Source of the DNA: Bilabrum cf. latius
Taxonomy: Eukaryota
Assembly (NCBI GenBank): GCA_965178125.1
Contig: OZ237765.1
Location: forward strand, 124,001-188,000
Length of the DNA: 64,000 nt
Direction: 5' to 3'
Under the pieces are notes generated by a model. That model had not been told where the DNA came from and ran no database searches. It was given only the letters and a program-made list of their open reading frames with translations. Position numbers and translations under genes: made by a program. Each line of letters starts with the position of its first letter. Positions within the stretch are counted from its first letter, which is position 1. Of the stretch, positions 3,423-58,420 are shown in pieces.

Positions 3423-3998
3423 TGGCTGGCTGGCTGGCTGGCCACCCATCTATCTCCTCCCTTGCTGTGCTCGTCATCGTATGTGGTTGTAGCCTGTGTA
3501 TGCGCACGCAACTGAGCTAATACCAGACGGCCGCCAGGCGTGGCAACTCGCTCAAGCCGACCCGGATACCGGCGCCAAAAGTTGAAGGACTTTCGGTAGG
3601 TTTGTTGTGAGGGATTATTTCAATACGTCATTTACGGACCGCGTGTAGCATTCCACTGACGGCCATCGAGGCAGACGTGGCAGGTGCGAGCTGCGAAGTG
3701 CGCTAGCCGGCGACCCCTCCGACTCACCCGGTGGGCCAGCTCAAACCAAACTACTGAGGGTACTACTAGGTGGATGTGCTTTATCCACCGCCACCAAGTG
3801 CAATATTCATGGAATTCATTTTTGACCGTTCGGCACCAGGCCCCAACAATTTTTGGGGGCACAGGATCTGTGACCCCCCTCCCCCTTCCCCTCCCCCACT
3901 GAGGGGTCTGTCTGCTCGTGAGAGCTTGTCTCCACCCGACTCGCACAAACCTCTGGAAGAGGTACACCGCCGGTCGTATCAACCTCAAATTTGCAGAA

Positions 3999-23100: not shown

Positions 23101-24622
23101 GAGTTGTCCATGTGCGGGGCATCGGCCTTGCTTGCCACGGCTGGTGGACTAGTCCGAACCTTTGACGACAGCATCGCAGCCGACGTGTCCTCCAGGGTAT
23201 CTCGCCGTGCCAAGTCCTCGTGGCTCGCCCTGGCGGCGTCATCCCATGGCGTGGGCTCGCTTGGGTTTCTTCAGCAGAAAAGAAGGCGGCAAGATGCCGG
23301 CCTTCCCTCGCAGGCAGAGGTGGGAATGGTGCTTGCGGCGGGCAGGAGACGGTCCCTCGCAGGGAGCATCGAGGGCGCGATGGGCATGCCTGGGGGGTTG
23401 GGGCAGGCCGCCCAGGGGATCGGAGCTCTGTTCGGCGGCGCCATGATGCTGTCCGCGGCAGGCGCGGGAGGTCAAGGGGGCGCCGCGCAGTTCCAGGGGC
23501 GTGTTCCGCCGCAGCCCCACCGCCGAGCTTCTGTGTCAGGCACGGAGCACGAGGAGCACAGGAGACCTAGGTTGAAGCGGAAGCTGTCCATGTCCCTTGG
23601 ACTGGCGCTGGACCTGCCCAGGGATCACATGGCGCAATTGCATGGAGTCGAACACCATGAGCACGGTGAAACGCACGGTGGTGCGCACAGCGCCGGCCCC
23701 CAGATGGGCCCATTGGTACCGCCGGCCCCTGGCAGGCGCCGACTCCCCGCCCTCGTGCCTCCAAATGGACCCCCGACGGATGGCTCCACGAGTGGCCAGT
23801 CCCTCCATCCCCATGGTGAGGACTAGTCACACAGGTGGCAGTAGACCCAAGGGCACCTGCGAGCAACCAGGACCGCAAGAGGCTCGCCGCTGCCACCACC
23901 CATCCAAGCAAACCAGAGGTCTTGGACCGCCCCTCAACAGCCCGCACCTTCTGCTTCCCAGGGATCTGCCACCACCGCCGGTGATTCCATCGTTCCAAGT
24001 ACAGCTTCAAGAAAGAGTGGCCCCCGGGGGTCCAGCACGCGCGACATGCGTCGGAGCCGGAGCACGATCGGCCAGCGGGGGTTCTGGCGAGGGCTCGCAT
24101 GGTCCAAGGCAGGACGAGGGGGCGCCTCTGTTCTAGGCGCCCTCGCTCTATCCCGCCCCAAGGAGCGGTTCAGAGAGATGAGGGAGAGGATGGGGGCGGA
24201 TGCAGGGCCTGGGGTCAGGCGGGGGAGCAAGCAGGGTGGCCTGCAGCTGGGGCCTGCAGGTGGTGGCAGAGGGCCAGACAGCGCGGGGCCATTCAGTGGT
24301 ACTTCTGGTCCGCGGCGTGGGTCCGTGTCCGGAGAGGCATTGGTGGGCAAGGGCAAGGCCGTTGCTAGCGGTGGCAATGCAGGAGTGGGGAGTGGCGGAA
24401 CGCCGCAGTTTCCAGAGGCCGTGTGCGCGGCTCGCCTGCTGGTGGGCCTCAATCGGCTTGACGTGGACCCGCTGGGGTGGCAGGGGATCCGCCGGGTGTG
24501 CAAGCAATGGCTGGCGGCGCAGATGCATGGGCGGGGGCATGGGCATGATGCGCATCAGCATCAAGGGGCCCATGGAGCGCATGGTGGCCTGAAGGGGTCA
24601 TAGGGTATACGAGCAGCTGAAG

Positions 24623-24676
<54 letters not shown>

Positions 24677-27600: not shown

Positions 27601-27753
27601 GGGGGGGATTGTGAGGGGGGGGCAGTGCCAGTGGGGGGTGTCGGTGGGGTGGCTGGGCCGGCCGGCGAGGGCGTTTGGCTGCCCACTGGTCGGGCTGCGG
27701 CGGCTTTCCTCAACTCGCTGCAGGCGCTTCCACCGGACTGGCTGCAGCAGTGA
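17101..27753 (+). CDS. Giant intronless low-complexity protein (about 3550 aa with TAG=Gln), unknown function, possible C2-like and CxxC segments
   Basis: Twelve plus-strand track ORFs from 17101..17655 to 27406..27753 share one frame, separated only by 18 TAGs (gaps read manually, no TAA/TGA). Terminates at TGA TGA TGA (27751-27759). Confidence 0.75.
24628..24675 (+). repeat. (GCT)n trinucleotide tract encoding poly-Ala inside the giant ORF
   Basis: Direct reading; in frame with 17101-27753. Confidence 0.85.
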
Positions 27754-31067: not shown

Positions 31068-34000
31068 ATGGCTGCTGTTGCCGGAGCTTCCACGGAAAAG
31101 CCTCTCAACGTGATTGAGAAGATCCTTTTGCACCATGCTGTCGGTTTGCAATCTAAAGCCATCAAGCCGGGCGACGTGCTTTGCGTCAAAGTGAGAGCGC
31201 GATCCATCGGTGGCCTCGATACCCTTCTTGGCAGATACAGAGCATATGAAGAACGAGTAGATCGACAATTCAACTTAGAATTGCATATAGATATCATAAG
31301 GTGCAAGAATATGCACTGAACTACCCTGAATCAGGTTGTCGCTGCAACGCAACACATTTCTCACCGAGCGCCATGCTCTGCGTGTCGCAGGTGGACTGGA
31401 CCATGGCGAACGAGATTACCTGGAAGGGGATGCGCATGCTTTGGCGTCGCCTTGGAGAGCCCAAACCGGCAAACCGTGAGTAGCATTCTTCAGTCGCTCT
31501 TGGCACATATCAGACGTTGATGCTGGCGCCCCGATCCAAGCACAAGCGAGTTTACACTCGCATTCTGCATCGCACCGAATCCAACATTCCGTGGCAGCCC
31601 CTCTTTGCTCTCTGCAGCCGAGCGCGTGTGGCTGTCGGTGGACCACTCGACGGACCCTCGCATCAACCACGAGCCCAAGCCGCTCGAGCTCACCAAGCTG
31701 GTGACCCAGTTCGCCAGGGAACACAAGATCGTGGACTTCTTCCCCCCTAACACCTCCATTATGCACACCGAGTTCGCCCGCCAGCGCTCCCAACCCGGCC
31801 AGATTGTCATCGGGGCCGATTCCCACACGTGCTCCGGGGGCGGCATGGGGGCGTTCGCCGTGGGCCTCGGGGCGGGGGACGTGGTGCTCCCACTCGTCAC
31901 AGGGCGCACCTGGTTCCGCGTCCCCGAGACGATCCGCATCGAGCTCAAGGGCAGGCCCGCTTTCGGCATCAGCGGGAAAGACGTCATGCTGCACATCTTG
32001 GGCAAGCTCAAGCGCAACACCGTGGCCCTCGGGAGGGCGGTCGAGTATGGCGGGCCCGGGATGAAGTACCTCTCCTGCGACGCGAGATTCGCGCTGGCGA
32101 ACATGGCCACGGAGTTCGGGGCTCTCGCGGGCGTATGCGTGGCCGACGCCGTGACGGCAGCCGCCCTGGCCAAGCGGGAGAGGGTGGGCAAGGCCTTCGA
32201 CCAAGCCGCCAAAGGGTGCGGCTGCAGCCAGGCAGCGCCCGAGGTCGTGGGCGACGACGCCGAGCGAATGGACTCGGAGACGAAAGCCAAGGCCGAGGCC
32301 GCCATGGCCGAGGTGGTCCAGGGAACAACACCGGGATCCGGAGCCGCAAAGGCGGGGGACATCGAGGCGGATGGGGCCGCGTCCGTGACGGCCCGCGCCC
32401 CCTCCTCCTCGGCTGCCGCGCACACGTCAGAGGCGTTGTACTTCCAGCCGGATGACGAGTGCGAGTACGCGGGTGTGTACGAGATCGACCTGGGCGAGGT
32501 GTCCCCCGCGGTGGCGCGGTACCCAGACCCCGACAACTGCGTGCCGGTGAACGACCCTGCCGTCAAGGGCAAGCCCCTGGACGGCTGCTTCATCGGGGCG
32601 TGCACCACGGCTCAGGAAGAGCTGGTCCTTGCCGCGCTGGTGCTGGAGCAGGCCCTCAGGCAGGGCCGCAAGCCAGCGGTTGCAACCGCCACGGGGATGG
32701 GGAAGGCCCCGCAGCGGAGGGTCACCCCAGGGTCTGTCTAGATCTACGAGACTCTCGAGAGGCACGGCCTGCTGGACGTGTACCGCAGGGCGGGCTTTAC
32801 CGTGGGTTCGCCCGGGTGCTCCTTCTGCCTGGGGATCGCCGCTGACGTGGCACAGGAGGGCGAGATCTGGCTGTCCTCGCAAAACCGGAACTTCAAGGAC
32901 AGGATGGGCCGGGGGTCCATCGGGTCCCTGGCCTCTGCCGCGACGGTGGCGGCCAGCAGCTTGGGCATGGCGGTGGAGGACCCCACCCCTTTTCTGAAGG
33001 GGATCGATCCCGAGCGTTTCGAGGCGCTGCGGGGGGAGCTGAGGGTGGGACCCCCGGGAGGGGTCAGGGCCCTGCGCCCCCTGGTGGGGGCGGGGATTGG
33101 AGTGCGGGCTGGTCGCGCAGCTGTGACGATTGAGTACGACGCGGAAGGCCCCGCGGTGCCGAAGGAAGACCCAGCAGGCGCGGGGGCTGCTGCTGCTGCT
33201 GCTGCAGGGGGCAAAGAGGCGGAGGAAGAAGGTGAGGCGAAAGAAGAACAAGTAGAGGGAGAAGCAGGGGCGGCGGAGGGGGCCTCGGATGCAGTTGGGC
33301 TCTTGGCCCCCGAGGCACCACGGGACGATGCACTCGTCACATGGACCGAGCCGCAGCCCGAGCTCGCGACGGGGGCAGGAGGAGGTGCCTCCGCTGCCGA
33401 TGATGATGCGGCAGCAGCGGCCGATGGGGGCGAGCCGCCCGTCATCGGCCCTCACCTGCCCACGTCGGTCAAGGGAGCGGTGCAGCGTTTCGGGGCGCAC
33501 GTGGACACGGACGCGATCATTCCCGGACCTTTCCTGGCATGTTCCGCGGAAGACCGCGTCAAGCACGGGGAGAGGGCCGACATGACCGAGGACGAGTTTC
33601 TGGGGGCCAAGTGCTTCGCGTACGCGCGGCCCGAGTTCAGGGGCAGGGTCAAGGAGGGCCGCACGGTGGTGGTGGCGGGGGAGGGCTTCGGCAGCGGGAG
33701 CAGCCGAGAGGAGGCGGTGAGGGCGCTGAGGGCCGCGGGGGTGGGCGCGGTGGTGGCCCGGTCCTTCGCGTTCATCTACGGGCGGAACCAGCCGAACAAC
33801 AACCTGCTGGGCGTGACGGTGTCCTCGGATCGGTTCTACGAGCTGGCCCAGGAGGGATCCACCGTGGAGGTGGACGTGCCCAACCGGCAGGTGACCGTGT
33901 GGCCGTCCTCCTCGTCGTCGGGTGAGGGCGGCAGCGCTGGGGAGGGCGCAACGGAATCGTTTCCTTTCGAGCTTAGTCTTGTTGAGGAGCGATTTCTTCA

Positions 34001-34166
34001 GGCAGGTGGAGTGGAGCGCCTATACAAGCGCTTCGGGGCGGGTCTGTTCGAGGCCGTGCTGCAGGGCAAGACGGAGGGGTGCGTGCCCGACGACAAGGTC
34101 GAAATGGGGGAGCCTGCCAGCGTGAAAGGGAGAGATGCCGCCAGAGCAAGGACAACGAAGGGTTAA
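31068..34166 (+). CDS. Aconitase-family hydro-lyase, fused LeuC-like large + LeuD-like swivel domain (exons 31068-31190, 31391-31475, 31618-34166; about 918 aa)
   Basis: Motifs NVIEKIL, VDH, IGADSHTC, GKDVMLHI, LANMATEFGA, DGCFIGACTT, PGCSFCLG, SSQNRNFKDRMG, VDTDAIIP and GFGSGSSREEA. Two in-phase GT-AG introns; in-frame TAG at 32739 between the Fe-S cysteine ligands; TAA stop. Confidence 0.9.
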
Positions 34167-36674: not shown

Positions 36675-37976
36675 TCACGCGCCCCCCCTCGCGTGCTTCT
36701 GTAGCGTGGCAAGGATCTCGTAATACGCGGGCTTCTTCTGGAACTTCTCGTCGAAGGGCAGCGCGCTCGCTGTCTCCCCCCTCCAGCTCACTAGCGACGT
36801 GAAGCCCCATGTCTCGTATGACCGGAAGACGTCCGTACCCGCCTGCAGCGCGGCCTCGAGCAGCTGCCCGTAGATCATGGCCTGCTTCTCGAACTCCTCC
36901 TTGGTCTGTTCCTGCACGGACACGTCCAGCTCGGTGATGTGCACCTTGAGTCCCAGGGCGCCGAGCCTCTTGATGTTCTCGCCGACAGAGGTGAAGTTGG
37001 GGTAGTGAGACGTCGTGAAGTGGCACTGCAGGCCCACCCCGTCCACCCTCACGCCCTTGTCCTTGAAACCCTGCACCATCTTGTACACCCTGTCCGACTT
37101 GGCGTTCACCTCCTCGGCCGAGTAGTCGTTGTAGAAGAGGGGGATCTGCTTGGTGGTGGAAGAAGCCGTCTGGAAGGCCAGCTACACGTAGTCATCCACT
37201 GCAGCAATAGCGAGAAAACGCAAAATGAAGGGAAAGAAGGAAAATGACATGCAAGTAAATCGTAGTTGGAGAGCTGCTCCAGAGGGCACGCATGGGTCGA
37301 GTGCGTGCAACTCACGTGCAGGGTACCACGGGTCAGCCTTCTTGAAGATGGACTGCCCGGGCTTGAAGGCCCCCCCATCCGCGATGGCCTCGTTCACCAC
37401 GTCGACTGCCACCACCTTGCCCCCGCCCGCGTGCCTGTCCTGGGCGTCGTACCTAGACACGACCTTGGTCACGTGATCCTCCAAGATCGCCTGCAGCTTG
37501 GAGGGAGAGAAGCCGCCCCCCGTCAGCCACTTGGGGTTGTACACCCCCCACACCATGTTGTGCAGGCGGAATACTCCGTCGGCGCTGTCCGCGCCCTTGG
37601 CAGTGCTGACGTTGAAAATCTGGTCGCAGCCGTCGTATGTGTACGAGCCCTCGTTCGGCTCTGTCGGGCCGAACTTGCACGAGTTCTCTGCCGTGGCTAG
37701 GTCGTACTCTGTGGTAAATACCTGGCGGTACTGCTCCTTTTGCGCCCCAGTGGTGATGTAATTGTGGTTAACCGCGGCACCGACGTAGATCCCGGCGGCC
37801 TTTGCCGCTTCTCGCAGCGTCTACGAAGCATCGACGCCGAACTTTTTGTAGTTCAGCTCGGACGCAGGCGGCAAGGGAGCTGGATTCGGGTAATGCTGCG
37901 CGATTTCTTCCTCGGATAGATGCCGCCCAAACGCAGCCGCAGTAAGGGCAGTTGCAGTGAGGATCTTTGATAGCAT
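36675..37976 (-). CDS. Secreted glycoside hydrolase family 10 (endo-1,4-beta-xylanase-like), exons 37976-37316 and 37198-36675, about 394 aa
   Basis: Signal peptide MLSKILTATALTAAAFG. GH10 motifs ENSCKF, RLHNMVW, VDVVNEAI (acid/base Glu), LFYNDY, VDGVGLQCH and ITELDV (nucleophile Glu). 117-nt GT-AG intron; TAG at 37821 and 37182; TGA stop. Confidence 0.9.
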
Positions 37977-38279
37977 TCTGCGGCGTTCATTTAGGGATGG
38001 CTTGCAACAGCGCGATGCGGTTGGGTCGAGAACAAAAAATAACCAGGGTGCAATCTAGACGAGATGAGCCACTGAGTGTGCCTCACTTGTCCACGAAGAA
38101 AGAGGTGATGACGCTTTCCGGATCGATCAGGCAAATCGAAGGTTCGTGATGACGCTTTCCGGAATGGCTGCCAAGTGCAACTACAGAGATTGCTGCGACC
38201 ACGGCGGTACAACAACTCTAAAAAATCACCGTGGGAATGGGGGCTACGCATGAGTAGTGGCTAGTCCGACGTGGCGGCG

Positions 38280-40203: not shown

Positions 40204-41805
40204 ATGGCAGGTGCTGTCGACATAATTGGCTCAGCAAGATTTGGAAAATATGACGAGCTGCTAGATGCGATCCGCTCCGACAAAGATGCTGTCAAAAAGG
40301 CCGTAAATTCCGTGAGGTGAATGTGTATTGTGTGCAAGAGTCTGAACAATTCTAGTGTCCACAGTGCAAAGGGCACACGGGCAGTGATAGCACTCAAAGA
40401 TACGAAGCTGCATGGCTGGTCGTGCATTCTCCGCTAGTCATGTGCAACGGATCAGGGCGCAATGCAACGCTATCGCTGAAATCAAGATGCTGCGAGAGCA
40501 CCGTGTCTTGCACTCGACTACCAACATGCATGCACTCCTCCCACGTGTGCCGCAGGACGGAGAATCTGCGTTGCATGCTGCCGCAGACGCGAATCAGGTT
40601 GGGGCTCTGTAGTCCCTGCTGGACATCGGACTCCCCACCGATGCGACGGACTTGGGGGGCAGGAATTGCGTTCACGCCGCAGCTGCGTCCGACTCATCCG
40701 CGAGCATACTGGTGGTTGCGCAGCGGGCGTCAGACTCGGCCCCTCTCCTAGCCGGAACGAACGTGAGCTCAGCTCCGACTGCTGCTGCCCTGGATCGCTG
40801 CAGCCCGCGAGCAAGCAGCTGCATACTTGACACAATCGCCATGCCATCCCGCATCCCTGCCGATCTCATCCCACTGCCATCCCATCGCAGTCGGGAAACA
40901 CCCCGTTGCATCGAGCGGCGGCCTACGGCAGCCTGCGAGCCCTGCGAGTCCTCGTGCAGGTCGCGCAGGTGCCGCCCAGCGCGGGACCCTCTAGCGCGGC
41001 GGCGAGTGGGGGTGACGACGACGATGCTGGGGATGGTCGACCCGTGAATGCGCGGAATGGGGGCGGCATGACACCTTTGGCGCGGGCCGCCCGGTGGGGG
41101 CACGCGGACTGCGCGAGGGCTTTGCTCCGGTCAGGGGCGGATCCGGGACTGCGAGACGGGGAGGGGAAATCCCCTGGGGACTGGGCGGGGGCAAAGGGTC
41201 ACCAGGGGGTGTTGGGGGTGCTGCGAGAATGGGAGGGGGCGGGGGAGGAGCAGCGGGAGGTATGGTGCGCGGAGGAATCGAGGGCGCAGGAGGGGGAGCT
41301 GCAAGCGGCACAGGGGGACGTGGAGGAGGACGGGGCGAGGGCGCGAGCCGCGGGTCTTGGTGCCATGGGCATCAGCACGAGCGAGGAAACTGAAGATGAA
41401 GAGGACGAGGACGGGGAAGGCAGGAAGGGCGGCTCCAAGCGGCTGAGGGGGAAGAGCTTCGCGCTGGCACCCGGCAGCTCCTTCGAGCAGGGAACAGCGG
41501 TGCGCGTGGAGGGCTGGATGGCAAAGAAGGGACATTGGTTTCGAAACTGGAAGAACCGGTGGTTCGTCCTGGAGGGCAGGAAGATGCGGTACTACGGAAA
41601 GCAGGGGGACAGCGCTCCCAAGGGGGAGATCCACCTGGTGGACGGGACGCAGGTGTCGCCCCAGATCGACCACCGGGAGCGGGATTTTTGTTTCCGGGTT
41701 GACACGCCCAGCAAGAAGTTCGTGCTGCAGGCCGCGGATGACGAGGAGAGGGATGAGTGGGTGACGGCCATCGAGACCAACCTCAAGTATGCCAAGGACG
41801 AGTGA
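40204..41805 (+). CDS. Ankyrin-repeat + PH-domain protein (exons 40204-40311, 40556-40762, 40891-41805; about 409 aa)
   Basis: Ankyrin motifs DGESALHAAA, GRNCVHAAA, GNTPLHRAAAYG and GMTPLARAARWG; PH domain VEGWMAKKGHWFRNWKNRWFVL...ERDEWVTAI. Two phase-0 GT-AG introns; TAG at 40610 inside an ankyrin helix. Confidence 0.85.
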
Positions 41806-42040
41806 ATGGTCGACGTGAAAGGACGAGTGAAAGGGCGGGTTGGATCCTGGCGGTTCGGGCCGTCTGTGTGCGGTCACAGGAAGGCATGGGAGGGGCGGAA
41901 CCGGTCGGGGAGAAAGATGTTGCCACTTCCGGTCTTGGCTGGTGCCGAGGTGCGAGAAATGTGCTCCATCTAGTGGGATATCGCGGGCCGCACTGGTCAG
42001 CAAGCATCCTTAGATTCTAGTTATATCAATAGATATTTCA

Positions 42041-45000
42041 ATGGCTACAGAATCGGAGGCACAAAGACTCGCACCAAGCGTTACGGATGCGCTGCCGGAG
42101 CACCTTCCGATTGGAGCCTCCCCGGCGGGAAGGCACTCCGTTGTTGTATCGCTCCCAACTATGGCAGACGTGCACGCATACGAGCAAGGAGATCCCACAG
42201 CTCGCGCTTGCATTCAGCTTGGATATCCCCGCTTCGTGCGCCACTCTTTGATCCGGATGGCCGAAGACTTGCTGTTTGATGGCAGCACCATCTGCAGGGC
42301 GCAGGCCAAGTCTGACGCAGATCCGATGTTTTCGTGCGTGAAGGACGAGTCTAAAGTATGCGATGCTACCGAATGCGCCCTCTCCATCCCTGCGGTGCTG
42401 GCCGAGCCGCTGGCACACCTGTCTCAATCGGCGGAGTGTCCGGGCTCTAGCGAGACTACCAGTAGTACCAGCGGAAGCTCCGTGCAGTGGGTGTGCAGGC
42501 TCCTTGGATCGGAAGAAAGCGCAGAGGGTCTCACTCGGTACGTCCGTCGCTCACTTCGCGCGGATGCAGATGCCACTGCCAGTGCTGGTAGCAAGTTTTC
42601 CTCCTCCGAACCGGGTGCGACGACCGTGACGAGGAGCATGCCTCAGGCTGGCAGCGGCAGCGGTGCCATGCTCGCTTACCAGGCAGTCGCCCAGGTGCAC
42701 GCCTGCCTCGACGCGTTCCCACAGATGCACGATCGGGTTAGTTTGAAGATGAAGACTGCCGGCACTACTAACGGTCGGAACGTTCTACCTGCAGGCGCCA
42801 CTGCTCCCGCTGCCAGCGACGGCGCGGGATCGGGATCGGCAGCCAGCAACACAGGTGGGGTGCGCGCCGACCTGTGGGTTGCGATCCTTGGATTTTCGAT
42901 TCCGGACGAAGTACGCACTGGGAATGTTCCCTCTGCCCCCGGGACCGCTGCCAGCCCAGCCCCCGCCCCTCCAGCTGCGGCACCCATGGTGGATGCGGCC
43001 GCTTCACACGCCAAGTCATTTCTGCAGCACACGGGGTCGGGGGCCAGCTCGAGGGAGGCGGAGGTTCTGCTGGAGGCGGCCTGGTGTGACGAACTTGCGC
43101 GGCGCCGCGGACGTTCCGCAGGGCACCTGGTGGTGGACTGGGTGCGGCGCAGCGACGGCGGGCCTTTGGTTTGGAGTCCGAGCGGTGATGGTGTGGGGGT
43201 AGATGGTGTGACGAGTGCATCGGGCGAGGTGGGTCCTGCGCCTTCATCTCATTGCGTGCCTCTTCCTTTGGCGCCCCCCGTGTTCGCACCAAAGAGCTTG
43301 GAAGGCATCGTTTGTATGTTGGACCAGGGCCCGAATGCCGAGGCAGCCGACAAACCCGTCCCGCCCGGCTGCGACGCTGCAATGCGTTGCACCTGGCCCG
43401 CTGCCAGCCTGGACCCCTGGATGGTTCGTCTGCTGAGGCCGCTTCTGGGTGGATCGGCGAGCAAAGGGAACACGAGGGGAGGGGACGAGAGGGGAGGGGA
43501 CGAGAGGGGAGGGAACACGAGGGGAGGGAACACGAGGGGAGGGGACGAGAGGGGAGGGAACACGAGGGGAGGGGACGAGAGGGGAGGGGCAGGTGATGAT
43601 GCAGGATCGGCGGTGACACGAGAGCCACATGTGGCGCTGTGCCGCAGTGGGATGAATGCATTTTATGCGCTATACCGGGCCATCTGCAGAGCCCAGCTGC
43701 AGCGGGATGAGGAGGACCACATTACGGATACAGGGATTGGCTGTGGTACCGGCAGCGGCAGAGGTAGGGACGTGTGGGTGCAGATCGGGTGGCTCTATGT
43801 TGACACGACCATGATTCTGTCGAGAGTGGGGGTGGAGGGGGCACTCGGGGGCGGGGAAGGGGTTGCTGGGGATCGTGGCGTGGGGGATGGAGGGAAAGGG
43901 CAGGGCAAGGGGCAGGGAGTGAGCGGTGTGGGGGATCGGGCGACCCCTGCAGCCCCTGGGGGCATGGTGGGGGGAGTGCCCCCCACCCCCACGGTGGGGC
44001 CTCGTGCGGCCCCTCCAGACGGGGGCATCACCGGCCTGCACCCCGCCGTCAGTGTGACGAGTGCCCCCGGCGGGGTTGTTCTCTCGATCACAGAGGCCTC
44101 GGACCAGGCGGCCATCCGCTCCGTGTTCGAGGCGTGCGGGCCCAGGATCGCGGGAGTCGTCACGGAGGTCCCCACGAACCCCTCGGTTAGATGCGGGGAC
44201 CTACTGCTCCTCAGGAAGCTGTGTGACGAGTGCGGGGCGGCGCTGGTGCTGGACCCGACGATGTGCTCGGCGTTCTGCGTCGGTGTCGCCGGGCTGGCAG
44301 ACGCGACCGTCCTGTCGCTGACCAAGTATTTCGGCTCCGGGGCATCGGTGATGGCGGGGGCGCTCGCCGTCAATCCGGAGCGGAAAATAGGCGCGATGCT
44401 GATGCCGAAGCAACCGGGAGCGATCGAAGGTAGCAGCGCCGGTGGCAGCAGCGCCGCGGGATCCACGCATGTTCCGCAACCAGAGCCGATCTCGGCTGCT
44501 GACCTGGCTGCGATCGTGCGCGGCGCCGCCTATGTTCCGCAAGTGCTCCCCGCGATGCTGCGCAACACGCGGTAGGTGGCCAAGGCCGCCGAAGAGTTCC
44601 TCCCAAATATTGCAGATGGGGCAGGTGCTGGGTCTGGTGCTGGTGCTGGTGCTGGTGCTGGTGCTGGTGCTGGTGCTGAGACCAGCACTAGACCTACCAC
44701 TCGGGGAACAACGAGCGAACGTTCGCTCCTTTCCGAGGTGGACTGGGCCATGTCACCAGCCTGCCTGCCTTCGCTCGGGCCGTGGCTGCGGGACCCTGGT
44801 GAGGCGGTGCGCGGCGCCTTTGGTTCCGTTGGGATCGACCTGAGCGGGCACCCCATGGTGGGGACAGGCGCGGCGCCCCTGCCCCCCGTTGGCTGCATCG
44901 TGAGCCTGGGGTTCCGCAGCGAGTCGGCCCTGCGCGGCGCCTACGACGGCCTCCGGTTCGTGAAGGGTCCCTCGTTCGGGACCTCGTTCTCGCTGGCATG

Positions 45001-45199
45001 CCCCTTTGTGTTCCTCGCGCACTACGACATGGCCAGCACGAAGGAGGGGCGCCGCGCACTGCGGAACCACGGGATAAATCCGTTCGTGCTTCGGCTGTCG
45101 GTCGGGGCGGAGGGAGGGGGTGCCCCGGGGAGGCACGTGAAAGAGCTGCTTGAGGCCGTGCGGCGAGAAGAGTTGGGGGGAGAGGACGAGGGTTGCTGA
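42041..45199 (+). CDS. Cystathionine gamma-synthase-like PLP enzyme (Cys/Met metabolism family), about 1052 aa with large low-complexity inserts
   Basis: [18 protein letters not shown]...[28 protein letters not shown] (PLP lysine), [22 protein letters not shown] and LRLSVG. TAG at 44573 joins ORFs 42041..44575 and 44576..45199. Confidence 0.85.
43465..43588 (+). repeat. 15-bp coding minisatellite ([10 protein letters not shown] pentapeptide repeat)
   Basis: About 8 units of gggaacacgagggga / ggggacgagagggga, in frame within the CGS-like gene. Confidence 0.85.
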
Positions 45200-45316: not shown

Positions 45317-46739
45317 ATGATGGGGCATGGAAAAGGTGAAACTGCCACGCATATATCAGCTAGGCTTAATAGGTACAGGATCGTGGAGGCGCTTGTGAAA
45401 GCAGACATTACAGGAACTCCGTAAGTGCAGCGTACACACTGAGACGTCTGCTCCGCCTTTGGTATCGAACAACGGTGTTTGCATGATACTGCATTATATC
45501 CATGTGCGCAGTAACTCACAGGACGCATGCGGGAGGACTCCGCTGCATGTTGCGTGCGAGCAGGGGTACGACACGATCGCCAAGCTGCTGCTTCAGAATG
45601 GGGCAGACCCCAACATGGTCGATATGAGGCACAGGCAGCCGCTGCACTATGCCGCAGATGGGGGCCATTTGGCATCTTGCAAGCTACTGCTAGATTTTGG
45701 GTCGCTGGTGGATGTTCGGGACGAGGAGGGGCATACCGCGGTCGATTTGGCGGGCGAATCGGGGCACGAGGGCTGCTGCTTTGTCATTTTGAACCGTGCC
45801 ATGCAGCTGGCCATGGGACCTAACGGCGAGTTTGATCTGATGGACGACATCGACGATTGCAGGGACTTGGAGCTTGAGCCGTCAGGGAAACATGCTTCCT
45901 TGAGCGAGCAGCCCCTCCCGGTCGAAACCGCGGCGCACGACGGGCCCGCGCTGAAGAAGAAGCAGGCCGCTGCAGGTGCCGGCTCTGCGCAATCCGCAGC
46001 ACTGGCAAGGCGAGCCTGGAAATCCTCGATGCGGGAGGGCGAGCGGTGGGCGAGCATGATGACGATCCAGCTGGCGAGGGAGGTGCGGGAGGGCAGAAAG
46101 ACTTTGAGCCAGGTCGTGGACAGCATCAGGGCGAAAGAGAAAGAGTCCAAAGGTGTCGGTGATTCTGAGAAACGTGCCTGCTCGGGTTCTGGCGCAGGTG
46201 CAGGCGGTGTGTTGCCCTCGTCCGGCCTTGCAACGGGCCATACCTCGGCTGTTGCTCGCTTGGGCAGGGATGGCAACGGGGGCGGCGAGGGAGGCGACTC
46301 GACTGGTGCTGTCGGTGGTGCCTCCAGCTCGACTAGAATAGCTGCAAGCGGTGGTGACCATGGCGGCGGTGCGGATGGGGACTCGGCCTGCGCAGGGCCG
46401 GTGGAGGGGCCGGGCGATGGCGGCGTGATCGGCGCGGGTGAGCTGGGTCTGGGTATGGACCTGGATCTGCTCGGCGGAAAAATGGGCTCTGGCATCGGTG
46501 ATCGGTGTGACGAGTGCGAGGGGCTGGGGCTGGTGACCTCGCTATTGCTTGGTGCGATTCGAAAGCAGGAGGGCGGTGCTGGGAAGAAGACAGAAGGTGA
46601 GCCATGCGAGTCGGCCGCTGGATCTGCATCGATAGAAGGCGCGTCTATGTCTCTGCCTGGGCCTGGCAGCAGGCAATCGGGTGAGGCAGTGTCCAAGGCG
46701 AGTGCTGGTGGTTCATGCAGCAGTGATGGAGGCAATTGA
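45317..46739 (+). CDS. Ankyrin-repeat protein (exons 45317-45420, 45512-46739; about 443 aa)
   Basis: GETATHISARLN, GRTPLHVACEQG, RQPLHYAADGG and GHTAVDLA. GTAAGT...GCAG intron in phase; TGA stop. Confidence 0.8.
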
Positions 46740-46918: not shown

Positions 46919-47964
46919 TCACTGCCTCCCCCCCTCCTGCCCCCCCTCAAACCTCCTGTCCTGCTCCTGCACCGCCGCCTCCATCGCGTCCTCCTCCTCC
47001 AGCCGCATCCGGCTCTCCACCAGCCGCCCATCGTCGTCCACAAGCGCGCGGACGTCCTCAGGCAGCGCCTCGAGGCCCCTCTGCAGCCGGGCCTTCTCCA
47101 CATCCTTCTCCGCCTTCTTTTGCAGCGCGAACTTGCCTCTCCGCATGGCGGTGTTGAGCTCGCTGCGGGTCGGGCGCAGTGCCCAAGGGTGGTCCGAGGG
47201 AACCTTCATCTTGCGGCCGAACCTCTTGATCGTGACCAGGTCGCCCACCAATCGGCTCCGGATCCCCGTGCGGCCCTGGGACTTCCACGCGTGCGGCTTC
47301 TCCTGCGGCTTGATCAGGCTGGCCGCCTCGGGCTCCTTGGCCGGCTGCAGCGCGCTGGGGTAATCGGCCGCGTCCTGCCGCACGCGGTCCAGGGTCCGGA
47401 AGGCCCTCTGGCGCTCGCCCAGGACCACCTTAATGCGAGACATGGTGCGCTTGACCAACGACCATCGGCGCATGTCCGGGCCCGCCAGCCGCTTTTGCTT
47501 GAAGTAGAGGCGCTCGGTGGCGAGCATGTCGCGCTCGCGAAGGCACACGAACCAGAGCTTGTGCAGGTCTTCCAAGGACTTTTGGCGCAGCTCGGAAGCA
47601 AGCCACGGTCTTCCTACGGACACATAATTCTGGTGTTGGCAATCACATAGTGATGGGGCAGACTTGCACTGGAACGACGCGAGGTCAAGCACGGGAGCTT
47701 CCTCAGGGACATAAAGGAAATCAACCGCAACCATTCGGTGATTTTCTGGTAGAAAAACGAGCATGACAACTTACCAGCAATCTATCTCTGCGTACCATCT
47801 TCCCGCATCTCGTATGATGGGCCAAAGAACTCATCAAAGCCCGCCATTGCCGGTGCTGATGTCGAGACCGCTCTGGCAGGCGTGCTTGCCGAGCAAGTGC
47901 GAGTTCCAGCCTTTACTATGGACACTATTACATTTCGAGCTACTGCTGGAAGCCTCAACGACAT
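46919..47964 (-). CDS. MRPL47: Mitochondrial ribosomal protein uL29m/L47 (exons 47964-47775, 47613-46919; about 294 aa)
   Basis: Presequence-like N-terminus [18 protein letters not shown] motif in exon 1; [31 protein letters not shown] in exon 2. TAG at 47782 lies just before the GTAAGT donor. Confidence 0.88.
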
Positions 47965-50344: not shown

Positions 50345-52388
50345 ATGCAAGAAGAACACCACGAACATGTCGGTATTGAGGAGGCGTTCGCCGGCCCTTC
50401 GGGTTCTGAGGCCGTATTCGACGACCATGCAATAGCTCAGGCTGCTCACACCGGGGCGTGGGCGATTCCAGACGAAGCTAGACGATTAGCAGCCGGAGGA
50501 ATCAGCGGAATCGCAGAAGTTATCACAACGCATCCTATCGACTTAGGTGAGACGGTGATTTAGACTATGGATGCGTGATGAGGTGGCAGAAACTTGGCGC
50601 CGTATTCGATTTGCCTTGCTCCGCCTGCTTTTTACGCGTGTTTGGTTGCCAATTGTAGGATATTGTGGTAATAAAGTTTTGTTTGGTAGTATTTGTGTGG
50701 TTGTGCAGTGTATGCTGTGGCTGCTGTTGCCAGCAGGGCCCCGGAGATGCTTGAAGGCGCGTTGCAGCCGATCCCGGGTGTCCACGTGGGAATGCTAGCT
50801 TGCGCGGCATTCGCGCCAGTAACTTGGGTATTTGGCCCAACCAGTGTGATTCGCATGCATGGTTCATTCATATATGCGTGATGGGTAGGCGAGTACGTGT
50901 CGAATGGCTGAGATGAAGCCGCACTTGCAGTTGGTGCGACCGGCTGTTGCAGTTCGACCGTCTTGCAGTTGACGCTGCAGCGGGTCATGCCTTGGAAAAG
51001 CTTGCCTCACAAGCCGCCGTATGCCTGTAGATTGTGACATATAAGGATGCACCGCGAGGAAGGGCGGGTCAACATGCACGCAGGCTCCACGGTTGGCTGG
51101 AAAGCCCCACGTGACGCGCTGCGCCGGGCGCGGTGCCAAGTGTCCGGTAGCACACCAGTAAGCCGCTCATACGCATGAATCCGCGCACGTAGATGACGGT
51201 AGGCTGCAAAATATAATACTCCAATGTATGTACCTATACTGCTGGCGATTAGAACAGAGTTCGCTGCTGTGGGTTGCGACTCAGCCTGACTTGAGGGCCG
51301 GCTGACTTCCACCCGACAGGCCAGCGACTCGCTCCCGAGTGGCTGGTCGGCCGGTTCCGGCATGTGTGTACGCGGCATGAACGTGGCTTGACTTCCTTTG
51401 GGTTCAGCCACGTGTTGATATGGGTTGGTTTTGCATTGGAAATCAGCGTAGATTGCTCGTCGCGTGTCGTGCAGTGTTTCGCGCTTGTCGCCACACATCT
51501 GGCGTTGCCACACCCCCGCCCCCCCGTTCCATCACCATTTCTGTGCTTGCTATCGCAGTCAAGACACGCATGTAGCAGGCCTACGAGCTGGGGCGCCCTG
51601 CAGGCCCCGCCCCCGTGATCAGGGAGGCCATCGCCAGGGGCGGGCTTGCCGAGCTGTACGCGGGCTTCGTGCCCAGGCTGCTCGGCGTGGTGCCCATGCG
51701 CGTCACTTTCTGGGGCACGCAGAGCATCACCAAGCATAGGCTGGACGAGAATTTCCCGCACGTGCACCAGCTGGCCCGTGTGCTCGCCACGGGCACCATT
51801 GCGGGCACTGCCCAGACAGTCATCGACGGCCCCATCGAGGCGATGAAGATCCGGGCCATGACCTCGGGCAAGAGCGTGTCGCTGTGGGAAGTGATCAAGG
51901 GAGGAAGATTGCCGGGGTTTTCGGCAACGCTCGCGAGAAACGTGGTGTTTGCGGGCGCCTTCGCAACGGGCTTGTACATGGGCGCAGACGACTCTGCGCT
52001 TGATTAGGCCATGATCCGGGGGGCGGGGGCGGGCCTGGTGGCTTCCATCGTGTCGCAGCCCCTGGACTTCGTCAAGACGATTGCTCAGATGGAGGGCGGG
52101 CGCTCGCAGCCCATGCTGCGGGTGCTGACCCAGACCCCCCTGAAGACGCTCATGTCGGGCTGGATTCCCCGGGCTGCGCTTGGCATGGTGTCCATGTCTG
52201 TGGGGGCTGTGGTGTTCCGGGCGGTGGAGAACTTCCTCATCTCCGGCGCGCTCTTCACCAAGTGCCAGGACACCGCGCTGCAGCACCCCGCATCTGCGCA
52301 CACGGCACAGCGGCAGCTTGACTTGAAGAGGGTGCAGCACGCGAGGAGGCGAGCGGACGAGGCTGTGGCGGGGGAGGGCAGGCAGTGA
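50345..52388 (+). CDS. Mitochondrial carrier (SLC25) protein (exons 50345-50546, 51559-52388; about 343 aa)
   Basis: Three carrier signatures: THPIDL/VKTRM(TAG)Q across the intron, GPIEAMKIR and QPLDFVKT. TAG at 51573 and 52005; TGA stop. Confidence 0.9.
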
Positions 52389-52965: not shown

Positions 52966-53661
<696 letters not shown>

Positions 53662-53844
53662 GCTTGCAGTATTATTTTGTCTTACGCTCAGCATTCGAGC
53701 TGGTGGTTCGATGATCGGATTACACTCGTCATATGCACTGATGTCCATTTCCTGGACCCCCATTGCAACTTCCTTTCGGTTTGCCGCGAGTTTTAGCCCG
53801 CGATAGCATGAAAGAAATTATATACAGTTGAATCATTTGCGAGT

Positions 53845-55657
53845 ATGCGAAGAAACCGCGTAGTTCAAAGATGCATACGGACACTTGCAGTGCAATTGCG
53901 TGTTCGATTCCAGCAATACGGGATGAGGTGGGCAACCACACATCCTAGCGTTGATGTTGTTGTCATTGGAGGTGGACATGCTGGATGTGAGGCGGCGGCT
54001 GCTTCTGCACGCGCAGGGGCAAACACGGTGCTCCTTACGCAAACTGCCGAGCAGGTGGGCGAGCTCAGCTGCAACCCGTCCATCGGGGGCGTAGGCAAAG
54101 GCACTCTTGTCCGTGAGGTTTCCGCCATGGGAGGCATCATGAGCCGCGCCGCAGACGAGGCCGGCATCCTGTTTCGCATGCTGAACCGCAGCAGGGGCCC
54201 GGCCGTGCACGGCCCGAGGGCCCAGGTCGACAGAGCCCTCTACAAGGCCGCGGTGCATCGCATGGTGTTGCAGGAGACCCCTAACCTGCAGCTGCACGAG
54301 GGCCTGGCACAGGATGTGGTCATCTCCCAGGCCAGCGGGCGAGTGACGGCTGTGCTCACCGAGGCGGGCGACGTGCTGCCCTGCAGGGCCGTGGTGCTCA
54401 CCACTGGGACATTCCTGAGGGGCGTGATCCACGTGGGGGACAGGCAGATCCCCGCGGGGAGGAGAAAGAGGTCCAGGGCGGAACTGGAAGCGGACGGAGA
54501 CGGCTGCAACCCGAAATCAATAACCGCCGCCCCAGGGCGCGGGGTGCGGCTAGACGACGAGGCGGAGGCGGAGAAGGAGAAGGATATCGACCTGGCGGAG
54601 CCCCCGAGCGAGGGATTGGCGCTGACGCTGGAGCGAATGCAGCTGCCTCTGGGACGACTGAAAACCGGCACCCCTCCCCGCCTGGACGGCCGCACCATCA
54701 ACTGGGAGTGTCCAGGGCTGGAGGCGCAGAGCACCGACGAGCAGCCGTGGGTGTTCGATTACCGCCGGGAATACGCGGGCGAGCTTCCCCCCGTGGTGGC
54801 GAGGGGGGAGACCATCCGGTGCATGGCCACGAGGACGAACGCCAGAACGCATGCCATCGTGTCGGAGAACAGGCTGAGGCTACCTACATTCGTGGGGGGG
54901 GGTCCGCAGGGGGAGGGCAAGGGGCCGAGGAACTGCCCCTCGATCGAGTCCAAGGTCAGGAAGTTCCCCGACAGGGAACAACACCTCGTCTGGCTGGAGC
55001 CCGAGGGGATTCGGAGCCACATTGTGTACCCCGCAGGCATCTCCACGGGCCTACCCGAGGACGCCCAGCTCAGGATGGTCCGGTCCATCCGTGGGCTGGA
55101 AGAGGCCGAGATGGTCGCACCGGCCTATGCCGTGGAATACGACCACGTGGACCCCAGGTGCCTCGACCCTACCCTGCAGCTCAAGGGGGGCGGGGCCACG
55201 GGGCTCGCGCGGTCCGGATCCACTTCCGGTTTGGGGCCGGGCTCCGGTTCTGGTTCCGGTTTCTTCCTGGCCGGTTAGATCAACGGCACCACTGGGTACG
55301 AAGAGGCCGCGGCCCAGGGGCTGGTGGCCGGTGCCAACGCCGCCCTTCTGTCGCTGGGCAAGCCCCCCATGGTGCTGGACAGGACCCGGAGCCTGACAGG
55401 TGTGATGATTGACGACCTCACCAGCAGGGGGGTGGCCGAGCCGTACCGCATGTACACTGGCAGATCCGAGTACAGGCTATCGGTAAGGGCAGACAATGCT
55501 GACCTGAGGCTGACCCCGGCGGCGTGCGAGGCGGGGCTGCTGCGGCGGGAGGGGCTGAGGAACAGCGGGGGTGCGGTGCATTATTTTGCCTGGCCTGACG
55601 TCACTGCGGAGCTGCCTCCGCTGGATTGCCAAGACGAGCACGGCGAGGAGCACCTCT

Positions 55658-55688
<31 letters not shown>

Positions 55689-56979
55689 ACATTAGCAGCA
55701 GCAGCAGCACCAGCAGGAACATCAGCAGCAGCAGCCCACGACAGAGGGAGGTGGAGGCGCCAAGGCTGCACCATTTCTGGGCGACCGCCCCGACTGGGCC
55801 GATGCTGTGGTGCTAGAGACAAGGCAAGATAGGGCCGCCGCAGGGCGTGACGAGTGGCTGGCGAGGGCTGGCGAGGACCAGTGGAGGGGGTTCCGACGGC
55901 GGGCGAGGCGCGTTGAGATGGCGGGGTAGGCTCTTCGGGAGGCTGTCCTAAGGCCGGGGGAGTGGGGAACAAAGGGAGTCCAGGGAATAACCGAGGATAT
56001 CGGTCGCGGTGCTAAGACGGGGAACAAGCCGGGGAACAAGCCCAGGGCGGTGAGCGAGCTGCTTCAGGCAGGCGTGGTGAGTACTGGGGAGGACGCAGCG
56101 GGGCTCATGCAGCGGGCTGCTCTGGGCCGACTGCAAGAGGCAAGGCAGCTCCTGAAAGACGCGATGAGCGTGTATTTCGGGGGGGACTGTGTGACGAACA
56201 GGTAGGCGTGGGTGGAGCAGAAAGCTGCAGGGGCTCTGTCTGGCCTATTGCAGCGCGGGGAAGACAGCATCTTCGACGGTAAGGAACATGTGACGAGTGC
56301 TTGGGCCAGGGAACAGATGGACGGCTCCCGGTCGGGCGGCGAAGATGGCGAAGTGGACCAGCGGGACAGGTCCTTGCCCTGGTCGGCTGCCCTGCGAGGT
56401 GTATTCGGGGCCGGCCTGCAGCCAGACATAGAGCGGGCGGCCGGGCTGATCCAGGGGGCGGCGGAGCTGTGCGACCACGTCAGTGCGGCGGGTCACCATG
56501 CGGCTAGAACCACCGCTGGGGTGGAAGCGAGGTACTCGTCACACGTGCAGCGGCAGGCGCGGGAGGTGGGACGTGTGACGAGGGCGGGGCGTCTGCCCCT
56601 TCCTCAGTGGGTGACGAGTGCGTGGCTGGCCGTGCCGGGGATTCCCCGCGCCGACGCAGAGGCCCTGCAGTCTGCCGGTGTGACGAGTGTGGGGGAGGCG
56701 GGGCGGGTGCCCGGGGTGCGCCCGTCCACCGTGTCGCTGCTGGCGGCGCTGGCCTCGGGCGAGGCAGCCACTGCCAGGCCCGGGGTCGCAAGTGGGGGTG
56801 ACGGTGCATCGCATGGTGGTGCAAGAAGTGGGGGTGTGGATAGGCAGGGAACAGGTCTAGAGGAATAGGCTCGCACAGCTGCCGTCGCTGATGCTGGCAG
56901 TGGTAGTACCCAGCCTGAGGGTGTGACCGCCGGAATCAGCGCCAGGCAGCGGAGGCGGTTGAAAGCTGCACAGACCTAA
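53845..56979 (+). CDS. MTO1: Mitochondrial tRNA U34 modification enzyme MTO1/GidA (MnmG), about 1044 aa with TAG=Gln
   Basis: [68 protein letters not shown](TAG)[40 protein letters not shown] and C-terminal [16 protein letters not shown]. Six TAGs; TAA stop at 56977. Confidence 0.93.
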
Positions 56980-57139
56980 TTAACGTTGTTTCGATCCATG
57001 GGTGCATGTCTGCTGCAGTTCGGGGACACCCCATGGCGGCGTTCCACGGCTCAGCGGTTGCAACCTCCTTTTCAGAGTTGCTGTGACGAGTGCTGAGGAA
57101 CCCCACCCACAGCCGCACAATAAGGAACCATAACAGAAC

Positions 57140-58420
57140 ATGTCGGCTTGGAAGCGAGCCGCTGCGTCGGGAGGCAGTATCGCTAAAACAATTGCCTCGG
57201 CGTAGGTCGTTGGTGTGGAAGGAAAGGCTGAATCAGGGCCTGCAGCAGCCGTCGAAGCAGCGTCGGTTGTGGTTGCGCCAAGCTTGCCGTCTGGCTCCAC
57301 TGCGCCTTCTACGGGTTCATCGTCTGCCCCAACAGCTGCAACTACTACTGAGGGTGGATCTATGTCAGCTGCAGGCGCAGGAGTACCGTCGACTGCGCCT
57401 TCATCAGGTGCGGGGGCATCAGGCGGGAAGAGTAAATCGGGTCGTAAAGGCGAGCATTGGAATGTGTTTAGCGAAGCTGTACAGCTGATCATCAGCGAAT
57501 GGCCTATTCTACGTACAGCATTGCAGCAGCAAAGTGCAGGTTCGAAGACAAGAGAGCGTTTCGATGATATGCTCGACGTGCTGCTTGAGAACTTGGTGGA
57601 GGTATGGGATGAAGGCGATTCTTTATCATGGCTAAGCGTATTCGACTACTTGGAAGAAGTGTTAGATACAGACCTCAACGTCGACTTTGACGGCGATGCA
57701 CAGTTGCAGGCGGTGAGTATTTCGACAGTATTTGACGTGGATGTATGGTGGAGAGCTGCCGCGTGATGCATACTTTTTCCAATGGCCCCGAAGCTTTCGC
57801 GGTGTGGGCAACCTTTTTAAGATCGTTAGGACTGATGGCACTCTCCATTACTATGCTCGAATCCCCGCACGTTGCGCGGTTTTCGAATCATGCTTGCTGC
57901 AAGCGCCAGTTCTGTTACGAATCACACATCTTGCACGATCTAATACCCGCGATTTGTTTGCATTGCATCGCAGGTATCCCGACAGGTTGAGAAACTCTTC
58001 AACGATTGCGCGGCGGGCAAGCCGGAGCCGGCCCAGGCGCTCATCAAGGTCTTCGAGGAGCGCCTCGAGCAGGAGGCCGAGGAGGCGCGCGCCATGGGGG
58101 CCAAGGGGGGAAGCGCTGCGGCTGCCGGTGAAGATCATCATGACGATGACGATGACGAGGAGGAGGAGGAGGGCGATGATGGGTGGGCCAGGCCAAAGGG
58201 AGGCAAGGGCAAGGGAGGAGCAGGAGCAGGCAGCGGGGCGGCATCGCCGGCAGCGGCTGCCACAGGCGGTGCTGGTGCTGGAAGTGCTGCTGTCAGCTCT
58301 GCTGCTGCTGCATAGGCGGCTCCCGCGAGTAAGGCTGATGGAGAGGATGGTGACGAGGATGATAGCGATGACGACGGCTGGAAGGTGGTTGCGGGGGGCA
58401 AGGGGAGGAAGGGGAAGTGA
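57140..58420 (+). CDS. TSR2: Pre-rRNA-processing protein TSR2-like (exons 57140-57712, 57974-58420; about 339 aa)
   Basis: FSEAVQLIISEWPILRTAL...DYLEEVLDTDLNVDFDGD|VSRQVEKLFNDCAAG, an acidic tract and C-terminal DDDGWKVVAGGKGRKGK. TAG at 57203 and 58313; TGA stop. Confidence 0.75.

Follow-up and report, generated by a model that had tools for sequence, protein, structure and literature searches.

The 64,000-nucleotide stretch of DNA analysed here (the window) covers positions 124,001 to 188,000 of the forward strand of contig OZ237765.1 (assembly GCA_965178125.1, Bilabrum cf. latius). It contained a gene for the tRNA uridine-5-carboxymethylaminomethyl modification enzyme (MnmG/GidA/MTO1), whose reading frame stayed open only if TAG was read as an amino acid. 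MnmG/MTO1 and its GTPase partner modify U34 of mitochondrial tRNAs. The gene and its features are listed below; residues are numbered in P0001, the 1018-residue protein that starts at the ATG at 53923.

53845..56979, + strand: MnmG/GidA/MTO1-type gene, one exon, with six in-frame TAG codons and a TAA terminator
55276..55278, + strand: TAG at residue 452, within a 22-residue motif
55657..55659, + strand: TAG at residue 579, at the head of a nine-codon CAG run (ctc TAG cag cag...)
55693..55695, + strand: TAG at residue 591, in a polyglutamine tract (gaa cat TAG cag cag cag cag)
55927..55929, + strand: TAG at residue 669, in a context of 15 residues
56203..56205, + strand: TAG at residue 761 (CVTNR-TAG-AWVEQ)
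56494..56778, + strand: C-terminal MnmG domain, matched by residues 618-710 of the best homolog (P0002) in a tblastn search (E 9e-8), in the frame of the N-terminal part and past five TAG codons
56866..56868, + strand: TAG at residue 982, 36 codons ahead of the TAA
56977..56979, + strand: TAA terminator of MnmG, seen in the translation and in the DNA

The MnmG open reading frame (ORF) had 1044 codons when counted from the ATG at 53845 and 1018 codons when counted from the ATG at 53923. The standard code split the frame at TAG codons into 53812..55278 and 55279..55659, and it would end MnmG at residue 451, inside the flavin adenine dinucleotide (FAD) domain. When TAG was read as a residue, there was a single frame of 1055 codons (53812..56979). 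P0001 contained six in-frame TAG codons (residues 452, 579, 591, 669, 761, and 982), and the 1044 codons included no TGA or TAA. The 26 residues between the two ATG codons formed an Arg-rich leader that could be a mitochondrial presequence, although this leader and the nearby gene for mitochondrial ribosomal protein L47 (MRP-L47) were only suggestive of a mitochondrial location. No gene for the MnmE/GTPBP3/MSS1 partner was found in the 64-kb window.

The Pfam family GIDA (PF01134) matched P0001 in three stretches with an E value of 1.9e-124 (416.2 bits; cut-off, 22.1), and a phmmer comparison with the Escherichia coli MnmG structures (3ces, 3cp2, and 9hip) yielded an E value of 2.6e-127. The second phmmer stretch, which covered query residues 225-543, crossed residue 452 without a break. 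A database search with P0001 scored 8000 proteins, and the best 120 were taken for a MAFFT alignment. Among the 120 listed proteins, the best named matches were oomycete proteins and one Pseudopedinella protein (48-53% local identity), and alphaproteobacterial MnmG proteins ranked next. P0001 matched 110 of the 114 invariant columns in this alignment and 171 of the 185 columns that were conserved at 95% or more. The sequence GGGHAG at residues 16-21 was in conserved columns and was of the GxGxxG type, which we take to be the N-terminal dinucleotide (FAD) binding motif. Two cysteine motifs, SCNP at residue 49 and NCPSIE at residue 337, were present as well, and we presume that the SCNP and CPSIE motifs of MnmG have a catalytic role; the sole change was an N before the Cys, where 118 of the 120 homologs had Y. 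The 17-residue motif at residue 450 had all of its residues if TAG was read as Gln. In a tblastn search with P0002, one MnmG locus was found in the window, and a single N-terminal high-scoring segment pair (53953-55542) spanned the TAG at residue 452.

The C-terminal part of MnmG was very divergent, with about 317 residues versus about 75 in E. coli MnmG, and it included the polyglutamine tract. The C-terminal tblastn match was weak (30.5% identity over 95 residues), as was the phmmer stretch that paired residues 861-942 with residues 558-637 of E. coli MnmG (independent E value of 0.74). SAM_GIDA_C (PF13932) scored 18.7 bits, which was under its cut-off of 27.1, and PF21680 was not reported in the Pfam scan of P0001. 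Other inserts included about 40 residues after residue 181 and 22 Gly/Ser-rich residues directly before the motif that contained the TAG. The original prediction, a note made from the DNA letters, had described all other catalytic and C-terminal motifs of the gene as intact. This description held for the N-terminal GGGHAG, SCNP, and NCPSIE motifs and for the conserved columns; the C-terminal part was only weakly recognisable. With TAG read as an amino acid, MnmG appeared to be an intact, functional gene, and the enzyme was encoded in one reading frame that requires translation of at least five of the TAG codons. MnmG acts on the wobble base of tRNAs, but no link between this activity and the code change was found here.

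The sequence from 55261 to 55320 (ttc ttc ctg gcc ggt TAG atc aac ... gcc cag ggg) was read identically in our analysis, with the TAG of residue 452 at 55276-55278. The proposal that this TAG occupied the place of the invariant Gln in the MnmG/GidA signature was supported by the MAFFT alignment, in which the column was Q in 120 of 120 homologs, and by the nearest relative, P0222, which also had Q. On both sides of it, the columns A, G, I, G, T, T, G, Y, E, and E did not vary among the 120 homologs either, and the comparison with Pfam GIDA that had been proposed as a check yielded the strong match described above, with homolog alignments that were gap-free through the TAG. Q accounted for 3 of the 114 invariant columns, so the chance that an accidental TAG would fall on an invariant Gln was about 2.6%. 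Thus, the TAG at 55276-55278 most likely encoded, as a normal codon, the invariant Gln in the 17-residue FAD-domain motif. The site had also been offered as the cleanest single proof that TAG means Gln. The assignment itself was upheld, both at this site and by independent evidence from the window, but a single site did not constitute proof, and the case needed the 64 TAG codons in 12 ORFs and several Q-aligned sites.

Five further in-frame TAG codons in MnmG, which begin at 55657, 55693, 55927, 56203, and 56866, were absent from the original prediction. In the case of TAG 591, a repeat copy located 24 bases past the unit read gaa cat CAG cag cag cag, with CAG in place of TAG. Two other sites were aligned with P0222, a protein of 433 residues that was found in a search among shorter database proteins and was 74% identical to P0001 in its best local alignment. 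P0222 carried Q at the 20-residue motif corresponding to TAG 452 and had the lineage-specific region. TAG 669 (MAG-TAG-ALREA) faced Q in P0222 (SARQALRES), and TAG 761 also faced Q (CETGRQ).

Residues 544-1018 of P0001 were searched with HMMER against the full set of 1.84 billion representatives, which identified additional relatives. Sixty-four proteins had E values of 0.001 or less, and the following three had E values of 1e-10 or less.

P0362: 275 residues, covering residues 748-1018, identical at 215 of 277 aligned positions
P0363: 88 residues, covering residues 608-690, identical at 69 of 83 positions
P0364: 92 residues, identical at 56 of 92 positions

These proteins were 61-83% identical to pieces of the lineage-specific C-terminal half of MnmG, and the lineage-specific regions were kept in three database relatives. 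All three of the proteins listed started at internal Met residues, and P0362 and P0363 stopped within the gene. Such breaks suggested the product that would be expected if a relative's TAG-containing MnmG gene had been called with the standard code. The presence of database fragments that were about 80% identical and broken at internal positions also suggested that at least one relative has the same code.

The rest of the window was consistent with the MnmG gene. The G+C content was 62.6%, and the longest stop-free frame under the standard code was 936 codons. With TAG as a sense codon, the longest frames were 3551, 2401, 1123, 1104, and 1056 codons. With TAA as a sense codon, the longest frame was still 936 codons, and the same was true of TGA, even though each frame contained about two times as many TGA as TAG codons. 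The two largest frames, which were open only when TAG was a sense codon, were as follows.

17101..27753, + strand: ORF without a Pfam family, 3551 codons, 18 in-frame TAG codons and no TGA or TAA
8668..15870, - strand: ORF without a Pfam family, 2401 codons, 15 in-frame TAG codons and no TGA or TAA

Both giant ORFs were rich in Ala/Gly/Ser/Arg low-complexity sequence.

Twelve long ORFs (14,421 codons) contained 64 in-frame TAG codons, or 4.4 per 1000, and no in-frame TGA or TAA codons. The other two frames of the same ORFs contained 154 TAG, 446 TGA, and 67 TAA codons, which corresponded to off-frame rates of 5.3, 15.5, and 2.3 per 1000, respectively. Thus, TAG was tolerated within coding frames at about the off-frame rate (4.4 versus 5.3 per 1000). 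At the combined off-frame rate of TGA and TAA (1.78% per codon), a 1044-codon frame would be open by chance about 1 time in 1e8, and a frame of 3550 codons would essentially never be open. TAG represented 10.3% of the CAG, CAA, and TAG codons in the 12 ORFs. In-frame TAG codons were located inside homology-matched stretches of MnmG, an aconitase-family gene, and a glycoside hydrolase family 10 (GH10) gene, and the standard code would truncate or split 10 of the 12 long ORFs, the exceptions being the ankyrin and Spo11 genes.

The ends of genes provided information about the other two stop codons and about whether TAG ever terminates translation. The genes that were most useful in this regard are listed here.

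52966..53661, - strand: ubiquitin-L40 fusion gene, one intron
52966..52968, - strand: TAA that ends the ubiquitin-L40 fusion directly after its canonical C-terminal sequence ...RPKKKLK
3903..5681 and 6640..8421, + strand: tandem lectin-like paralogs with 2 and 5 in-frame TAG codons
27615..30926: gene for a DEP+PH protein

TAA was judged to be a stop codon because the ubiquitin-L40 fusion ends with TAA at its canonical C-terminus. The lectin-like paralogs, which were identical in 462 of 596 aligned columns, shared one end column in their alignment, where the stop was TGA in one paralog and TAA in the other. Reading through TAA added 16-46 codons to four genes and merged no ORFs. A code in which both UAR codons mean Gln, with TAA also a sense codon, was rejected based on the ubiquitin-L40 end, the paralog ends, and the lack of a meaningful gain in ORF length. 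All 13 of the gene ends that were examined reached TGA or TAA, some of them at conserved C-termini. Accordingly, TAA and TGA were kept as stops.

When the contexts of 66 TAG codons were inspected, 30 different codons occurred in the next position, the base at +4 matched the background, and the TAG-CAR-YYA readthrough motif was found at none of the 66. Context-dependent readthrough was rejected for these reasons, and the varied contexts argued for general decoding of TAG. A related idea is that TAG has a dual meaning, namely, Gln inside genes and a context-dependent terminator at some gene ends, as in some ciliates and Blastocrithidia. This idea would refine, rather than oppose, the assignment of TAG to Gln. 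Ambiguous codes have been documented (PMC4967479; bioRxiv 10.1101/2022.04.12.488043), and in two genes of the window the last TAG was near the end of the gene (residue 982 of 1018 in MnmG and residue 1044 of 1103 in the DEP/PH protein). However, the 13-residue tail past TAG 982 was identical in P0362. Because this tail was conserved, TAG 982 was judged to be read through and not to be a terminator. Given this result and the 13 of 13 genes that ended at TGA or TAA, we considered a dual meaning to be unlikely.

The identity of the amino acid was examined at additional TAG sites. The relevant features are listed below.

51381..52388, + strand: mitochondrial carrier gene with in-frame TAG codons; the first exon was not located
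51573..51575, + strand: TAG in the mitochondrial carrier (AVKTRM-TAG), in the exon at 51540..52388; Mito_carr E value of 3e-19
31521..34166, + strand: fused aconitase-family dehydratase (large and small subunits), of the homoaconitase / isopropylmalate isomerase type
32739..32741, + strand: TAG in the aconitase-family gene (TPGSV-TAG-IYETL), with alignments that run through it
36675..38126, - strand: GH10 xylanase gene, one intron

In the carrier, the TAG was at the place of the last Q in Px[DE]xx[KR]x[RK]xQ, which we take to be the carrier motif, and the third repeat of the same protein read PLDFVKTIAQ. The codons next to TAG were also informative, as CAG or CAA accounted for 16 of 132 neighbours, which placed TAG at rank 1 of the 61 codons with enough data; the value for CAG itself was 89 of 880, and the mean for all codons was 3.9%. 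The alignment of the lectin-like paralogs had five TAG columns, two of which were common to both paralogs and one of which faced CAG. None of the aligned TAG sites in the window fell in a column that was invariant for a residue other than Gln. Based on the invariant column, P0222, the polyglutamine tract, the carrier motif, and the neighbouring codons, Gln was the best-supported meaning of TAG.

Several observations weighed against this interpretation. The only TAG in an invariant column was the one at residue 452, and the other alignable sites varied. TAG 669 faced R in P0363, which is a closer relative than P0222, and TAG 761 and TAG 982 faced W and G, respectively, in P0362. Two of the TAG codons in the lectin-like paralogs faced TAC and AAC. 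Alignments of the carrier with Protein Data Bank (PDB) structures stopped short of the TAG, and the Q assignment there came from the carrier motif and the protein's own third repeat. The TAG site in the aconitase-family gene was mostly P or E. The absence of in-frame TGA and TAA was partly a matter of construction, since the ORFs were defined as free of TGA and TAA; the independent part of this evidence was the length of the ORFs and their homology. Finally, the window supplied no tRNA gene, Rfam family, or eRF1 gene. ARAGORN detected 0 tRNA genes in the window, there were 0 matches to Rfam families at the gathering thresholds, and no eRF1 gene was among the Pfam-scanned ORFs.

Residues 669, 761, and 982 of MnmG were variable, as indicated by the R, W, and G in P0363 and P0362. 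In the aconitase-family column, the six commonest residues among 120 homologs were P (55), E (24), Q (10), I (9), S (5), and A (4), and the best 14 matches had Q (3), E (7), A (3), and I (1); this site was compatible with Gln and uninformative. The TAG in the GH10 gene was at a variable position that is E or D in solved xylanases. TAG sites with variable partners show that TAG is tolerated; they do not show which amino acid it specifies.

It is conceivable that TAG is a sense codon for another residue (Ser, Leu, Glu, Lys, Tyr, or Trp) or that it is decoded ambiguously by near-cognate tRNAs. UAG is known to specify Ser in Scotinosphaera and Leu in a rhizarian and some ciliates (PMC11687900), and the partners of TAG at variable sites included R, W, G, Y, N, P, and E. 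On the other hand, the sole invariant TAG column was Q in 120 of 120 homologs, two more sites were Q in P0222, TAG codons lay amid CAG runs and had the highest rate of Gln-codon neighbours of the 61 codons, and none was at an invariant non-Gln column. We therefore considered an assignment to another amino acid quite improbable.

Editing of the mRNA from U to C (TAG to CAG) before translation would also yield Gln at every TAG site, with the standard code kept. This would require at least 64 specific editing sites spread over 12 genes within 64 kb, some of them in low-complexity regions, and we know of no such nuclear U-to-C editing system; we gave this explanation very little weight. The weakest explanation, which we rejected, was that the TAG at residue 452 is a nonsense mutation in a pseudogene, an assembly or sequencing error, or part of an unspliced intron: pseudogenes are typically recognised by a single in-frame stop, and MnmG was unusually divergent in its middle and C-terminal parts, but an isolated nonsense mutation was contradicted by the data because there were six TAG codons, no TGA or TAA, and a C-terminal domain that was still in frame, the chance that all stops would be TAG was 1.5e-4 for 6 of 6 and 1.8e-41 for 64 of 64 (at an off-frame TAG share of 0.231), no frameshifts were present, 171 of 185 conserved columns were kept, the lineage-specific regions were conserved in three relatives, and an intron at TAG 55276 was rejected since the homolog alignments had no gap there.

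The results of these analyses indicated, with a probability that we put at roughly 0.86, that the window comes from the nuclear genome of a GC-rich, intron-poor eukaryote in which UAG is a sense codon, most likely for Gln, and UAA and UGA are stops (NCBI table 15). By extrapolation from known codes (PMC5304391), UAG would be decoded by a tRNA-Gln with the anticodon CUA, which is one mutation away from tRNA-Gln(CUG). This tRNA would read UAG and not UAA, and eRF1 would no longer recognise UAG efficiently (PMC5304391). If this assignment is correct, table 15 must be applied to this genome and its relatives, since annotation, proteome, and orthology calls would otherwise be wrong; P0362 and P0363 look like that artefact.

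The remaining genes of the window are listed below.

40831..41805: gene for an ankyrin protein with a PH domain
41831..45199, + strand: gene for a Cys/Met-PLP-like protein
45399..46739: gene for an ankyrin protein
46919..47770, - strand: MRP-L47 gene
47742..50216, + strand: Spo11/Top6A gene, no TAG
57134..58420, + strand: TSR2 gene, two exons, with in-frame TAG codons
58607..61540, - strand: gene for a GT61-like protein

Spliceosomal-type introns were found in the ubiquitin-L40 and GH10 genes. The ubiquitin-L40 intron was 309 nucleotides in length (GT..AG, 53335..53643) and directly followed the first six codons (MQIFVK), with coordinates taken from the ORF lists. The GH10 gene had an apparent in-frame intron at about 37197..37358, which divided the domain into two halves, and the PDB alignments skipped query residues 257-310. 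The catalytic domains of Spo11/Top6A (residues 538-818) came after an extension of about 530 residues that was rich in Ser/Ala/Lys and contained a poly-Ser run. The Cys/Met-PLP-like protein had 1122 residues, an enzyme match that was limited to 100 residues, and an internal tandem repeat of a 12-residue unit. The lectin-like paralogs, which were about 2.7 kb apart, encoded proteins of about 590 residues that look secreted and match B_lectin and PQQ_2 weakly; antisense ORFs upstream of the paralogs (3632..4348 and 6369..7088) were duplicated as well. The aconitase-family dehydratase had two long Ala/Glu/Gly-rich inserts.

The lineage from which the window came was approached through its protein matches. 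The best named matches of both MnmG and the aconitase-family protein were from oomycetes, at about 50-65% local identity. In a quick tree, the closest relatives of the aconitase-family dehydratase were 12 sequences located beside oomycete proteins. This FastTree tree contained 65 sequences, namely, the query and 64 of the 120 listed matches (14 oomycete, 16 fungal, and 34 other sequences, with 56 left out). The query was on a long branch (0.55) with 12 of the 34 other sequences (support of 91), beside the oomycete clade (support of 99) and apart from the fungi. The oomycete-side placement is only a lead, as it came from a single gene and a quick method. An ESM Atlas search with the Spo11 domain was uninformative about taxonomy. 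Full-text searches of an incomplete library found no report of UAG-to-Gln reassignment in a stramenopile or in any GC-rich, non-ciliate nuclear genome. It is possible, although we hold this view tentatively and with more doubt than conviction, that the UAG-only-to-Gln code arose independently here, so far without report, in a stramenopile-related, aerobic eukaryote that is GC-rich and intron-poor and lies outside the ciliates and fornicates. If so, an A/T-rich stop codon was reassigned in a genome of 63% G+C, which is a poor fit to the "codon capture" model based on AT pressure, and the organism would be a tractable case of uncoupled UAG and UAA evolution. A further lineage, above all a GC-rich, non-ciliate one, would also provide data on the evolution of eRF1 and tRNA-Gln(CUA) and on the recurrent Gln outcome.

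The MnmG protein resembled known bacterial MnmG and mitochondrial MTO1 proteins in its GIDA domain, GGGHAG FAD motif, two cysteine motifs, and 17-residue motif, and in the identity of its core to oomycete and alphaproteobacterial proteins (about 50-53%). Unlike known MnmG proteins, which have about 620-720 residues, the protein described here had 1018-1044 residues, about 240 of which were extra residues, including the polyglutamine tract, between the core and the C-terminal domain.

The genetic code can be compared to several known codes. Codes that give different meanings to UAG and UAA are few (PMC5304391; PMC11687900). These sources describe nuclear codes in which only UAG was reassigned to Gln in the fornicate Iotanema spirale, in Protocruzia tuzeti, and in two phyllopharyngean ciliate lineages, and codes in which UAR was reassigned to Gln (table 6 type) in many ciliates, Dasycladales and other ulvophytes, hexamitin diplomonads, Streblomastix, and Amoeboaphelidium protococcarum (see also PMC6299283). 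In the UAR-to-Gln codes, TAG means Gln as it does here, but TAA also means Gln, while TAA is a stop in the window. In the rhizarian and ciliate codes that assign UAG to Leu and the Scotinosphaera code that assigns UAG to Ser, only UAG is changed and UAA is a stop, as in the window, but the residue differs (PMC11687900). Code 15 of crAss-like and other gut phages involves the same codon and the same residue (PMC9523058), but in phages of bacteria rather than in eukaryotic nuclear genes with introns. The closest correspondence was with the codes of Iotanema, Protocruzia, and the phyllopharyngeans, in which TAG means Gln, TAA and TGA are stops, and a tRNA-Gln(CUA) is expected. In contrast to the UAG-only ciliates and fornicate, the window had a G+C content of 62.6%, and its genes were long and poor in introns, with inserts rich in Ala/Gly/Ser/Gln; it also carried genes of mitochondrial translation (MTO1 and MRP-L47) and had its best named matches in oomycetes. 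The type of code is uncommon but already known, the window looks like neither ciliate nor fornicate DNA, and it may represent a new lineage for the UAG-only-to-Gln code.

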